From Escherichia phage vB_EcoM-G157lw, in sequence record OK331996.1: a stretch of 64,000 nucleotides of DNA; one strand, written 5' to 3'. The notes under the pieces were generated by a model that saw only the letters and a program-made list of their open reading frames with translations, searched no databases and was not told the DNA's origin. The stretch's first letter is position 1; each line of letters starts with the position of its first letter. Below are positions 48,896 through 64,000 of the stretch, one piece after another. Both the position numbers and the translations under genes were made by a program.

Positions 48896-50098
48896 ATGAA
48901 AGTATGCATTTTTATGGCTCGAGGTCTTGAAGGTTGTGGCGTAACTAAATTTTCTCTTGAGCAACGTGATTGGTTTATTAAAAATGGTCATGAAGTAACT
49001 TTGGTTTATGCTAAAGATAAATCATTTACTCGTAATTGCGCGCATGATTATAAGTCATTTTCAATTCCGGTTTTATTGGCAAAAGAATACGATAAAACAC
49101 TTAAGCTGGTAAATGATTGTGATATTCTAATTATCAATTCAGTTCCTGCTACTTCAGTCGAAGAAGACACTATTAATAACTATAAAAAAATTATTGATAA
49201 CATTAAACCTTCTGTTCGTGTTGTAGTTTATCAACATGACCATTCTTCTCTTTCTTTGCGCCGAAATTTGGGATTAGAAGAAACTGTTCGTCGAGCTGAT
49301 GTTATTTTTAGCCATTCTGATAATGGTGATTTTAATAAAGTTTTGATGAAAGAATGGTATCCAGAAACCGTTTCTCTGTTTGATGATATTGAAGAAGCAC
49401 CGACCGTATACAACTTTCAGCCTCCTATGGATATTGCGAAGGTTCGATCAACCTACTGGAAAGATGTTTCTGAAATTAACATGAATATCAACCGTTGGAT
49501 TGGTCGCACGACTACATGGAAAGGTTTTTATCAGATGTTTGATTTTCATGAAAAACATCTTAAACCTGCAGGACTAAGTACTATTATGGAAGGTCTGGAA
49601 CGTTCTCCAGCGTTCATTCCTATTAAAGAAAAAGGAATTCCATACGAGTATTATCGTCTTCATCAAGTAGACCAAATTAAAATTGCTCCTAATTTGCCAA
49701 CGCAAATTCTTGACCGTTATGTAAATAGCGAAATGCTTGAACGTATGAGTAAATCCGGTTTTGGTTATCAGTTGAGTAAGTTGGATAAAAAATATCTACA
49801 ACGTTCTTTAGAATATACTCATCTCGAGCTTGGTGCATGTGGAACAATTCCGGTATTTTGGAAATCTACTGGCGAAAATTTAAAATTCCGTGTTGATAAT
49901 ACTCCGTTAATTTCTCATGATAGCGGTATCGTTTGGTTTGATGAAAATGACATGGAATCAACATTTGAACGTATTAAAGAACTGTCATCTGACCGAGCTC
50001 TTTATGACCGCGAACGCGAAAAAGCTTATGAATTTTTGTATCAGCATCAAGATTCAAACTTCTGCTTTAAAGAACAGTTTGACATTATTACAAAATAA
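48896..50098 (+). CDS. a-gt: DNA alpha-glucosyltransferase (hmC glucosylation)
   Basis: 400 aa MKVCIFMARGLEGCGVTKFSLEQRDWFIKNGHEV...; size and position of T4 alpha-gt. Confidence 0.85.
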   Translation: MKVCIFMARGLEGCGVTKFSLEQRDWFIKNGHEVTLVYAKDKSFTRNCAHDYKSFSIPVLLAKEYDKTLKLVNDCDILIINSVPATSVEEDTINNYKKIIDNIKPSVRVVVYQHDHSSLSLRRNLGLEETVRRADVIFSHSDNGDFNKVLMKEWYPETVSLFDDIEEAPTVYNFQPPMDIAKVRSTYWKDVSEINMNINRWIGRTTTWKGFYQMFDFHEKHLKPAGLSTIMEGLERSPAFIPIKEKGIPYEYYRLHQVDQIKIAPNLPTQILDRYVNSEMLERMSKSGFGYQLSKLDKKYLQRSLEYTHLELGACGTIPVFWKSTGENLKFRVDNTPLISHDSGIVWFDENDMESTFERIKELSSDRALYDREREKAYEFLYQHQDSNFCFKEQFDIITK

Positions 50099-50137: not shown

Positions 50138-50278
50138 ATGATATTTCTTGGATATGTGATACTTTTTCTTGCATTTTATCTATTCACTAGAGCATGTTGT
50201 GTTGGGTTCTTTAGCACACCAGATGGGTTTATTTCAATAATTTTATTTTGCATTTCAATGACGGTTCTTGATATATGA
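50138..50278 (+). CDS. small hydrophobic membrane peptide
   Basis: 46 aa after GGAG; ATGA-coupled to downstream gene. Confidence 0.4.
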   Translation: MIFLGYVILFLAFYLFTRACCVGFFSTPDGFISIILFCISMTVLDI

Positions 50279-50898
50279 AAAAATATATAACTTATTTAAC
50301 AATATATAGTGGAGATAAACTTCCTCCTTTTTATATTGGATCTACGTCTTTAGATAGGCATTTAGCTGGATATCATGGTTCAGTTTTATCTAAAAAGTAT
50401 AAGAAAATTTATAATAAAGAGCTTTCAGATAATCCTCACTTATTTGATTCATGCATTTTAGCTGAATTTGATACGCGTGAAGAAGCTATTAAATGCGAGT
50501 TATATTATCAACGATTGCATGATGCAGTTAAAAATCCATTATTCTTTAATATGTCATATGCTGCTCCAAAAGGTTCATTTGGAAGAGATAATAAAGGACA
50601 AAATCATCCATTATATGGTTCTCATAATTGTAAAGGAAATATACATTCACATGATCCATTAACAGGAAAATCTGCCTTTTTGCCTTATATTCCAGAAGGT
50701 TATGTAAAAGGAAGGTCAAATAAATTTAAAGCTTCATCACATAATAAAGGTAAAAAATGGTATAATAACGGAGTTAAGCAAATGTTATGTCATGAACCTC
50801 CTGGTCCTGAATGGACAAAAGGAAAAATTAAAGAACTGGTTTCAAAAGCAGCTAAATTAGGATGGAAAAGACACCATGAAAATACTAAACTTGGGTGA
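50275..50898 (+). CDS. GIY-YIG-like putative homing endonuclease
   Basis: 207 aa; TIYSGDKLPPFYIGST motif; His/Lys-rich C-terminus; overlaps gene 47 start by 23 nt. Confidence 0.5.
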   Translation: MKKYITYLTIYSGDKLPPFYIGSTSLDRHLAGYHGSVLSKKYKKIYNKELSDNPHLFDSCILAEFDTREEAIKCELYYQRLHDAVKNPLFFNMSYAAPKGSFGRDNKGQNHPLYGSHNCKGNIHSHDPLTGKSAFLPYIPEGYVKGRSNKFKASSHNKGKKWYNNGVKQMLCHEPPGPEWTKGKIKELVSKAAKLGWKRHHENTKLG

Positions 50899-60273: not shown

Positions 60274-60310
60274 ACAACTATCAACTACTGATACAGATTT
60301 GGAGAATAAA

Positions 60311-60547
60311 ATGAAAATTGTTATGGGATGCTTAGCAGTTTGTTTAGTTGCATTAGCAGCAGTTCCATTTGTTAGTGTTGAAAATGATACTCAACCTATG
60401 ATTGAATCTAGCACCGTTATTCACACTAATGGTAAAATATCAGTTAAAATTGATGATAATCTTCATGTGAATACAAATGGATCTTTAGGTGTACAAATAG
60501 GTAATACCTGCATAAGCACTACTGGAGTAATTACTACTTGCATTTGA
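60311..60547 (+). CDS. small secreted protein
   Basis: ATG 60311 after GGAG (track start is TTG); signal peptide MKIVMGCLAVCLVALAA. Confidence 0.55.
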   Translation: MKIVMGCLAVCLVALAAVPFVSVENDTQPMIESSTVIHTNGKISVKIDDNLHVNTNGSLGVQIGNTCISTTGVITTCI

Positions 60548-60945: not shown

Positions 60946-61197
60946 ATGGAAACTTTAGTAGCAGGTTCAATTTTTATGGTTTTAGTTTCAGGTGTGTTGG
61001 CTATTATTATATACATGCTTCCATGGTTCATCGCCTTGATGCGTGGGTCAAAATCGACAGTAGGAATCTTTTTCACGTCTTTACTGTTTAACTGGTCAAT
61101 TATTGGTTGGTTTATTACATTTATTTGGTCAATTGCGGGTGAAACTAAAAAGTCTGCACAGCCAAATCAGGTAATTATCATCAGAGAGAAGGAATGA
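60946..61197 (+). CDS. imm: superinfection immunity membrane protein Imm
   Basis: 83 aa, two TM helices, position between 43 and 42. Confidence 0.7.
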   Translation: METLVAGSIFMVLVSGVLAIIIYMLPWFIALMRGSKSTVGIFFTSLLFNWSIIGWFITFIWSIAGETKKSAQPNQVIIIREKE

Positions 61198-61343
61198 AAA
61201 GCAAAATTATAGCAGTGTTGCTTTTAATCTTGATGATTATAATAAGTATATACTATAGTGTAACGGTTCCTCTTATGATTCCAACTATTATTTTAGGTTG
61301 GAGCTTATTACTGTTACAAGTTAAATATGAATGTATCAATTGA
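61194..61343 (+). CDS. small membrane peptide
   Basis: 49 aa, ATGA-coupled to imm; not in ORF track. Confidence 0.45.
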   Translation: MKSKIIAVLLLILMIIISIYYSVTVPLMIPTIILGWSLLLLQVKYECIN

Positions 61344-61350
61344 GGTTTAA

Positions 61351-62091
61351 ATGATTAGTGACTCTATGACAGTTGAAGAAATCCGTCTTCATTTGGGGCT
61401 TGCATTAAAAGAAAAAGATTTCGTAGTTGATAAAACTGGTGTTAAAACTATTGAAATTATTGGCGCATCATTTGTAGCAGATGAACCGTTTATTTTTGGC
61501 GCTCTTAATGATGAATACATTCAGCGTGAACTTGAATGGTATAAATCTAAGAGCTTGTTCGTTAAAGATATTCCAGGTGAAACACCGAAGATTTGGCAAC
61601 AAGTAGCATCTTCTAAAGGCGAAATTAACTCGAATTATGGTTGGGCTATTTGGTCAGAAGATAACTATGCCCAGTATGATATGTGTTTAGCTGAACTTGG
61701 TCAAAATCCTGATTCTCGACGTGGTATCATGATTTATACTCGTCCATCCATGCAATTTGACTATAATAAAGATGGTATGTCAGATTTCATGTGTACTAAT
61801 ACAGTACAGTACCTGATTCGTGATAAGAAAGTAAATGCAGTAGTAAGCATGCGCTCAAATGACGTGGTCTTCGGATTCCGTAATGATTATGCATGGCAAA
61901 AATACGTATTAGATAAATTAGTATCTGATTTGAATGCCGGCGATTCAACTCGTCAGTATAAAGCAGGTTCTATTATATGGAATGTCGGAAGTCTTCATGT
62001 ATATTCTCGTCATTTTTACTTGGTTGATCATTGGTGGAATACTGGCGAAACTCATATTGTGAAAAAAGACTATAAAGGTGTGTGGAAATGA
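61351..62091 (+). CDS. 42: dCMP hydroxymethylase gp42
   Basis: 246 aa, thymidylate-synthase-like fold, synteny. Confidence 0.85.
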   Translation: MISDSMTVEEIRLHLGLALKEKDFVVDKTGVKTIEIIGASFVADEPFIFGALNDEYIQRELEWYKSKSLFVKDIPGETPKIWQQVASSKGEINSNYGWAIWSEDNYAQYDMCLAELGQNPDSRRGIMIYTRPSMQFDYNKDGMSDFMCTNTVQYLIRDKKVNAVVSMRSNDVVFGFRNDYAWQKYVLDKLVSDLNAGDSTRQYKAGSIIWNVGSLHVYSRHFYLVDHWWNTGETHIVKKDYKGVWK

Positions 62092-62930
62092 TTCAATTCG
62101 TAATTCCAAGTTATCAGCGTGTCGGGGCAGTTTCTGCCCTTGATATGTTTCCGACTGATTATGAACCGCATATTGTAGTGCGTGAACATGAAGAAAAAGC
62201 TTATTATGATGCCTATGGGTCTAGAGCTAAAATTATAACTATTCCTGATGATGTAAACGGAATTGCCGGTACTCGTAAAGCAATTACTGATATGTATGCA
62301 GGTCAACGAATCTGGATGATTGACGATGATACTACTATTCGTATGAGTTCAATGCGAAAAAGAGATGACCGTCGTTGTGTAGATAAAGTCAATCAATTAA
62401 CCCGTGAACAGTTCTATGAATTGATTCAATACGTCGAAGATGCCATGGATTGCGGGTATTATCACGGTCATGCTCGTCTACCTATTTTTAAAATTACTTC
62501 ATCTTGGGGTAATTATCGTGAAAATTCATATGGATTCACGAATACATGGTATGACCTTGGAAAACTTACGACAGAACAAATTGGGTATGGAAAAATTGAT
62601 TTGTGCGAAGATATGTATGCATTTCTCAATTTAATTAATCAAGGTTATCCGCATTTGGCCTTGTTCAAATATCTGGTTGTATCTGGAAAAGCACAAGCTC
62701 CTGGCGGGTGTAGTTCAATTCGTAGTAATTCTAAACATAATAGAGCGCTTGAGCAAATCAATAGAGAGTTTCCAGAGCAAGCTCGTTGGAAAACTTCTAA
62801 TATTGAAAAACGAAAATCGTTGGGTGAAGAAGACGAGCCATTAAAGGTTCTTCGCATGTGTGTTTCGCGTAAAGAAAAATCAGAAGCATTTCATAAGTTT
62901 AATGCTATTCATCCAATAGCAGTTGATTAA
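62088..62930 (+). CDS. glycosyltransferase with DXD motif at the T4 beta-gt locus (candidate beta-glucosyl-HMC-alpha-glucosyltransferase)
   Basis: ATG 62088 ATGA-coupled to gene 42; 280 aa; IWMIDDDTTI; unlike T4 beta-gt in size and N-terminus. Confidence 0.55.
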   Translation: MIQFVIPSYQRVGAVSALDMFPTDYEPHIVVREHEEKAYYDAYGSRAKIITIPDDVNGIAGTRKAITDMYAGQRIWMIDDDTTIRMSSMRKRDDRRCVDKVNQLTREQFYELIQYVEDAMDCGYYHGHARLPIFKITSSWGNYRENSYGFTNTWYDLGKLTTEQIGYGKIDLCEDMYAFLNLINQGYPHLALFKYLVVSGKAQAPGGCSSIRSNSKHNRALEQINREFPEQARWKTSNIEKRKSLGEEDEPLKVLRMCVSRKEKSEAFHKFNAIHPIAVD

Positions 62931-63007
62931 TGCCTAAATTTATTGTGTTATAATTACTCTATCTTTAACCAGTGAGGAAAATATAATGATGCCTATGGAA
63001 AAAATGA

Positions 63008-64000
63008 ATGTCTATTGCAGATTTAAAATCCCGTTTGATTAAAGCTTCCACTTCTAAAATGACTGCTGAACTGACTACATCTAAATTCTTTAATGAAAAG
63101 GATGTAATTCGTACAAAAATCCCAATGCTTAATATTGCTATTTCTGGTGCGATTGATGGCGGTATGCAGTCTGGTTTAACTATTTTTGCAGGTCCTTCTA
63201 AACACTTTAAATCAAATATGTCTTTGACTATGGTTGCGGCATATTTGAACAAATATCCTGACGCGGTTTGTCTATTCTATGATAGTGAATTTGGTATTAC
63301 TCCAGCTTATTTGCGATCCATGGGAGTTGACCCGGAACGAGTAATTCATACGCCGATTCAGTCAGTTGAACAGCTGAAAATTGATATGGTGAACCAGCTT
63401 GAAGCTATTGAGCGCGGTGAAAAGGTTATTGTATTCATCGACTCAATCGGTAATATGGCTTCTAAGAAAGAAACGGAAGATGCCTTAAATGAAAAATCTG
63501 TGGCAGATATGACTCGTGCTAAATCACTGAAGTCATTATTCCGTATCGTTACTCCTTACTTTAGCATTAAAAATATTCCATGTGTTGCGGTTAACCATAC
63601 AATTGAAACAATTGAAATGTTTAGTAAAACCGTGATGACAGGTGGTACAGGCGTAATGTATTCGGCTGATACAGTATTCATTATCGGTAAGCGTCAGATT
63701 AAAGATGGTTCTGATCTTCAGGGGTATCAATTTGTTCTAAATGTAGAAAAATCTCGTACCGTTAAAGAAAAAAGTAAATTCTTTATTGATGTTAAATTTG
63801 ACGGTGGTATTGATCCTTATTCTGGATTGCTAGATATGGCTCTTGAATTAGGATTTGTAGTAAAACCTAAGAATGGTTGGTATGCTCGTGAATTTCTTGA
63901 TGAAGAAACCGGTGAGATGATTCGCGAAGAAAAATCTTGGCGTGCAAAAGATACCAACTGCACTACATTCTGGGGTCCTTTATTTAAGCATCAACCATTC
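63008..64000 (+). CDS. uvsX: recombinase UvsX (RecA-like), N-terminal 331 codons, truncated by window end
   Basis: MSIADLKSRLIKASTSKMTAEL...; Walker A GPSKHFKS; runs to window end. Confidence 0.85.
   Translation, partial: MSIADLKSRLIKASTSKMTAELTTSKFFNEKDVIRTKIPMLNIAISGAIDGGMQSGLTIFAGPSKHFKSNMSLTMVAAYLNKYPDAVCLFYDSEFGITPAYLRSMGVDPERVIHTPIQSVEQLKIDMVNQLEAIERGEKVIVFIDSIGNMASKKETEDALNEKSVADMTRAKSLKSLFRIVTPYFSIKNIPCVAVNHTIETIEMFSKTVMTGGTGVMYSADTVFIIGKRQIKDGSDLQGYQFVLNVEKSRTVKEKSKFFIDVKFDGGIDPYSGLLDMALELGFVVKPKNGWYAREFLDEETGEMIREEKSWRAKDTNCTTFWGPLFKHQPF

Follow-up and report, generated by a model that had tools for sequence, protein, structure and literature searches.

Gene organization at the gene 42-uvsX locus

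The DNA analysed in this study was a 64-kb stretch of the genome of phage vB_EcoM-G157lw, referred to below as the window. Between gene 42 and uvsX, it carries an ORF for a 280-aa protein containing the motif IWMIDDDTTI (residues 75–84), as had been noted in an earlier reading made from the letters alone (the sequence-only reading). The gene is called ba-gt here, and its coordinates and those of the associated features are listed in Table 1. In the ORF list, the frame was entered as 62082..62930 (+) with GTG as the first codon; starting from the ATG at position 62088, which is the annotated start of ba-gt in T2, ECML-363, and vB_Eco_Solly (Solly), the gene is 843 nt long including the stop codon and encodes 280 aa. 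This ATG and the TGA that terminates gene 42 overlap, forming ATGA (sequence AAATGATTC), and the same overlap was observed in Solly. Judging from this arrangement, translation of ba-gt appears to be coupled to that of gene 42. In the syntenic records, the matching upstream gene bears the annotation gp42, and locus comparison showed that ba-gt occupies the same slot between gene 42 and uvsX in the window, T2, T6, Solly, and ECML-363.

Table 1. Positions of ba-gt, its partner genes, and the corresponding regions in other phage records
Feature	Position	Strand	Evidence or remark
a-gt, DNA alpha-glucosyltransferase, 400 aa	48896..50098	+	Pfam PF11440 AGT, E 2.4e-236, profile 1-355 of 355; PHROG 2888, E 5.7e-222
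Gene 42, dCMP hydroxymethylase, 246 aa	61351..62091	+	Pfam PF00303 Thymidylat_synt, E 1.1e-15; PHROG 160, E 4e-67
ba-gt/ggt, beta-alpha glucosyltransferase (annotated beta-glucosyl-HMC-alpha-glucosyltransferase; Pfam TAGT), 280 aa	62088..62930	+	ORF; PHROG 842; Pfam PF20691; identity to T2, T6, and Solly proteins
VIPSYQR, residues 5-11, loop after strand 1	62100..62120	+	Alignment; I6 and P7 invariant
ba-gt codons 11 and 251	62118-62120; 62838-62840	+	Sites of R11H and P251S in T2
DDD, residues 79-81, DXD-type motif after fourth predicted beta-strand	62322..62330	+	Alignment of six sequences
Spacer between ba-gt and uvsX, 77 nt	62931..63007	+	Sequence; holds neither beta-gt nor segA, unlike T4
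uvsX, 5' part, running past the window end	63008..64000	+	Translation MSIADLKSRLIKAS...; synteny with ECML-363, T6, and Solly
ba-gt in three T2 records	L003:4286-5125; L010:798-1637; L011:789-1628	-	
ba-gt in T6 record MH550421	L002:4138-4980	-	
ba-gt in T6 record NC_054907	L005:301-1140	+	
Gene 42-uvsX gap with TAGT and beta-gt, CC31	L007:195-1222		
Gene 42-uvsX gap with TAGT and beta-gt, Serratia phage SP1	L008:1230-6215		

In the spacer preceding uvsX, reading by eye located TGCCTAAA, followed 11 nt on by TATAAT (62931-62954, plus strand), a pair of elements that resembles a T4 middle (MotA-dependent) promoter. This promoter-like stretch was not flagged on the plus strand in a scan for sigma-70 consensus sequences, and in the region 61000-63200 the promoter and terminator consensus scan gave counts no higher than expected by chance. 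Upstream of gene 42, the imm.1 and imm genes are flanked by two small ORFs for predicted membrane proteins, one of 82 aa (60299-60547, plus strand; PHROG 4189) and the other of 49 aa (61194-61343, plus strand; PHROG 3610), the latter lying between imm and gene 42. The 49-aa ORF is annotated in Solly and has no annotation in the T4, T6, and T2 records.

Similarity of the 280-aa protein to the T2 and T6 enzymes

The deduced protein matched PHROG 842, beta-glucosyl-HMC-alpha-glucosyltransferase, over residues 1-275 (E 6.4e-89) and Pfam PF20691, TAGT (TET-associated glycosyltransferase), with a score of 38.9 bits, above the gathering cut-off of 27.5 bits; residues 3-207 were aligned to positions 2-205 of the 205-position profile, i.e. 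over the whole profile, and the DDD motif was conserved. No NCBIfam model was matched by the protein.

Comparison with the beta-alpha-glucosyltransferases of T2 and T6, the homology check proposed with the sequence-only reading, showed identity at 278 of the 280 residues to the T2 protein and at 258 of 261 to the annotated T6 ggt product, the T6 protein being about 99% identical. Proteins with 100% identity are encoded by vB_Eco_Solly, FriedrichZschokke, vB_EcoM_Maryam, and others, and the protein of phage EL shares 97.5% identity. At the nucleotide level, megablast with the ba-gt gene returned 474 phage records with at least 90% identity, no less than 80% of the gene being covered in each. 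Tequatrovirus phages of Escherichia, Shigella, Yersinia, and relatives made up most of these, and in many of the records the gene is annotated as beta-alpha glucosyltransferase. The identity to the gene was 98.6% in both NR1 and QOTSP, and phage Some gave a 97.6% match to the final 24 kb of the window.

More distant homologues, all full-length, with identities of 66%, 48%, and 23%, came from phages of other genera or from unclassified phage genomes. They included 1) homologues with 64–66% identity in Karamvirus CC31 and in many T4-like phages of Klebsiella and Enterobacter, in which they follow gene 42; 2) the homologue of Serratia phage SP1 (48%); and 3) a homologue in an uncultured phage (23%), adjoining a gene annotated as "pyrimidine hmase". 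With these homologues and the 474 records, ba-gt is not a chance reading frame.

The window and T2/T6 thus have the same 280-aa protein at the same gene 42/uvsX position with the same alpha-gt partner. Apart from the absence of the substitutions R11H and P251S of T2 and Y40N, D55G, and R106H of T6, there is essentially no difference between the enzymes. These data indicate, with a probability of roughly 95%, that the ORF encodes a beta-alpha glucosyltransferase of the T2/T6 type and that the phage has the pathway to alpha-gentiobiosyl-hmC. A second enzyme building a disaccharide, as in the T2/T6-type arrangement, had been suggested by the sequence-only reading and is borne out by the near-identity to T2 and T6, the 100% identity to Solly, the shared locus, and the presence of alpha-gt. 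The gene is presumably the one for EC 2.4.1.28, glucosyl-DNA beta-glucosyltransferase, and the T2 and T6 genes were reportedly first cloned by Winkler and Rüger in 1993 (Nucleic Acids Res).

Presence of alpha-gt in the window and absence of beta-gt from it

The alpha-gt gene reported at position 48896 by the sequence-only reading was confirmed as a full-length T4-like gene, its product matching the entire Pfam AGT profile (Table 1). Alpha-glucosyl-hmC, the product of this enzyme, is the acceptor for ba-gt. Directly downstream of alpha-gt, a 207-aa ORF was observed (50275-50898, plus strand). Its match to Pfam GIY-YIG was weak (E 3e-4; 21.4 bits, slightly under the cut-off of 22.6), and those to PHROG were strong, including phrog_10820 (E 1e-94) and phrog_314, "homing endonuclease". 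By these matches, it probably encodes a mobile endonuclease of the seg type. The 24-kb stretch containing this ORF was aligned to close relatives in 1 to 4 pieces, suggesting variation in the content of the region between phages.

T4 beta-gt, which lies in the same genomic slot as ba-gt, acts on modified phage DNA, forming a beta linkage with UDP-glucose as the donor. This position between gene 42 and uvsX is the one point in favour of regarding ba-gt as an orthologue of T4 beta-gt that has diverged or been truncated. In BLASTP, the two proteins showed no similarity beyond chance, the best match spanning 8 residues with an E of 2.2. The full-length alignment to T4 beta-gt, named with the sequence-only reading as a result that would overturn it, was therefore not found, and the description of the protein in the sequence-only reading as having an N-terminus different from that of T4 beta-gt was right as to the difference but too narrow, because the dissimilarity is not restricted to the N-terminus and no similarity was detected anywhere. 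Searching the PDB sequences with the single protein and with a 6-sequence profile gave no significant match and no beta-gt entry, and the protein matches Pfam TAGT instead. Moreover, both genes are present next to each other in the gene 42-uvsX gap of CC31 and SP1, showing that they are two distinct genes sharing one locus. Orthology to T4 beta-gt was therefore rejected, its probability being practically nil. The two enzymes would also belong to different fold classes (PMC13216743), T4 beta-gt having the GT-B fold, and they differ in acceptor, which is hmC itself for T4 beta-gt and alpha-glucosyl-hmC for ba-gt.

No beta-gt was detected elsewhere in the DNA studied either, as tblastn with T4 beta-gt against the whole 64-kb window gave no match (best E 7.1). 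In T4, CC31, and SP1, beta-gt sits at the gene 42/uvsX locus, accompanied in T4 by the homing endonuclease gene segA, which lies between b-gt and uvsX, whereas the window has TAGT alone. The TAGTs of CC31 (66% identity), Klebsiella T4-like phages (about 65%), and SP1 (48%) are homologous over the full length and, like that of the window, directly follow gene 42; CC31 and SP1 differ from the window in having beta-gt after TAGT and before uvsX. Since its contents differ among T4, the window, CC31, and SP1, the locus is a site for glycosyltransferase cassettes.

Conserved motifs and predicted fold

In GT-A enzymes, a DXD motif binds the metal and the UDP-sugar. The DDD motif of ba-gt was kept in 5 of the 6 aligned sequences, down to the homologue with 23% identity, the exception being the T6 record NC_054907 with DD; D80 and D81 were invariant in all six. 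By analogy with GT-A enzymes, DDD would form the metal and UDP-sugar site, and the VIPSYQR loop may have a role in nucleotide binding. The AF2 model computed from the single ba-gt sequence had a pLDDT of 39.6. When modelled with AF3, the T6 TAGT showed a GT-A fold that clusters as sister to GT2 (PMC13216743).

Proposed pathway and sugar specificity

By analogy to T2 and T6, DNA modification in vB_EcoM-G157lw would proceed as follows. The gene 42 product would make hm-dCMP, so that hmC enters the DNA at replication, and alpha-gt would then add an alpha-linked glucose to hmC in the DNA. Ba-gt would move a second glucose from UDP-glucose, the likely donor, onto the first glucose in a beta-1,6 linkage, giving alpha-gentiobiosyl-hmC. 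The mechanism is expected to be inverting, because a beta linkage is made from an alpha-linked UDP-sugar, and an enzyme of the GT-A type would use the conserved DDD for binding the metal and UDP-sugar. The phage DNA should accordingly contain hmC, some alpha-glucosyl-hmC, and mainly gentiobiosyl-hmC; no beta-glucosyl-hmC is expected, because beta-gt is absent from the locus. We infer these catalytic details and the modification ratio for vB_EcoM-G157lw. The genetic requirement and the DNA chemistry have been shown by others for identical or 99%-identical proteins.

Two deletion studies bear on the genetic requirement. DNA of T6 with ba-gt deleted was degraded in vitro by Brig1, an alpha-glucosyl-hmC glycosylase, and wild-type T6 DNA was not (PMC11078745). 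This fits ba-gt adding the second glucose, as the DNA from the deletion phage behaves as if only alpha-glucosylated. Similarly, BapA released glucose from DNA of T6 with ba-gt (designated g-gt in that study) deleted and none from that of wild-type T6 (bioRxiv 10.64898/2026.02.25.707755). As to the chemistry, the DNA of several Durham phages, among them Solly, NR1, QOTSP, and Some, was found by LC-MS to contain approximately 2/3 alpha-5-gentiobiosyl-mdC and 1/3 5-hmdC, with alpha-glucosyl-hmC in trace amounts and no beta-glucosyl-hmC (PMC13390438). This pattern was ascribed by the authors to the possession of alpha-GT and TAGT without beta-GT (PMC13390438).

A different specificity, i.e. transfer of arabinose or another sugar, or direct glycosylation of hmC rather than extension of alpha-glucosyl-hmC, might be considered, as TAGT-family enzymes are also present in phages having no alpha-GT or beta-GT homologue (PMC13216743), and as TAGT adjoins beta-gt in CC31 and SP1, so that acceptors may differ across the family. 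However, ba-gt is 99–100% identical to the proteins of phages that have gentiobiosyl-hmC and no other sugar, and the phenotypes of the T6 deletions fit the extension of alpha-glucosyl-hmC. The probability of either alternative is consequently very low. Another sugar specificity, which the sequence-only reading had left as an option, is very unlikely given the gentiobiosyl-hmC detected by LC-MS in Solly with its identical protein (PMC13390438).

Expected level of di-glucosylation

Gentiobiosyl-hmC has been reported to account for approximately 5% in T2 and 72% in T6 (PMC13390438, PMC11078745). The level of di-glucosylation is therefore unreadable from the presence of the gene alone, because T2 reaches only about 5% with a protein 99% identical to that of the window. 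For the same reason, ba-gt of vB_EcoM-G157lw might be supposed to work at the low T2 level, leaving the DNA essentially mono-alpha-glucosylated, and an intermediate ratio of 1:2:2 was found in the Durham phages EL, BGP, and Geo (PMC13390438), of which EL has the 97.5% identical protein mentioned above. Three observations speak against this supposition: 1) the Solly protein is 100% identical and about 2/3 gentiobiosyl-hmC is present in Solly DNA; 2) residues 11 and 251 are R and P in the window protein, as they are in T6 and Solly, whereas H11 and S251 are found in all three T2 records; and 3) Solly shares the ATGA coupling of ba-gt to gene 42. A T2-like level is thus considered unlikely. Instead, a gentiobiosyl pattern like that of T6 and Solly is predicted for vB_EcoM-G157lw, because its protein is identical to that of Solly and lacks both T2 substitutions.

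The substitutions R11H and P251S were observed in 3 of the 3 T2 records (AP018813, LC348380, and MH751506) in comparison with the window, Solly, and T6. R11 is kept in every aligned homologue, including the one with 23% identity, except for T2, which has H; R11H could thus be a candidate explanation for the low gentiobiosyl level of T2. More generally, small allelic differences in ba-gt may set the ratio of mono- to di-glucosylated hmC (5% in T2 versus 72% in T6), a tentative proposal that we regard as possible rather than probable. If it holds true, the modification level and the sensitivity to Brig1-type glycosylases and type IV restriction would become predictable from sequence.

The two T6 records examined have different lesions in ba-gt. 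In MH550421, codon 10 is changed from CAG to TAG and the CDS is annotated from M20, giving 261 aa; in NC_054907, an in-frame 3-nt deletion reduces DDD to DD. Such lesions are odd for a phage known for 72% gentiobiosyl-hmC, and they may represent drift in laboratory stocks or sequencing errors.

Occurrence of TAGT in T4-like phages and implications

The family name TAGT refers to a TET/JBP dioxygenase context. In the window, the neighbour that provides the hydroxymethyl base is instead gene 42, whose product, a thymidylate synthase-family dCMP hydroxymethylase, acts on the nucleotide, and the acceptor of the window enzyme is a sugar already on the DNA, not the base. In CC31 and SP1, the TAGT product may be built on beta-glucosyl-hmC.

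In a 2026 survey, 753 phages were found to encode one or more homologues of the T-even glucosyltransferases (PMC13216743), and the vast majority of the surveyed phages pair alpha-GT or beta-GT with TAGT (PMC13216743). Thus, the "non-T4" arrangement is the rule, with T4 as the exception. The sequence-only reading, which had treated the arrangement as unusual, overrated it in this respect, since it is that of the majority among T4-like coliphages, with T4 as the outlier (PMC13216743). The T2/T6-type ba-gt at 62088-62930 is an already known gene and ordinary among T4-like coliphages.

The results presented here fix the annotation of the window and allow the DNA chemistry of the phage to be predicted, and this chemistry has a bearing on the host defences acting on the phage. 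DNA with gentiobiosyl-hmC resists Brig1 in vitro, and T6 is still restricted in vivo (PMC11078745). BapA releases little or no glucose from such DNA (bioRxiv 10.64898/2026.02.25.707755), and GmrSD-type enzymes are described in the literature as still cleaving it. In vB_EcoM-G157lw, the disaccharide would likewise change which of the host defences act on the DNA. Although it is no discovery, the annotation of ba-gt is useful for the prediction of host range and for the choice of phages.
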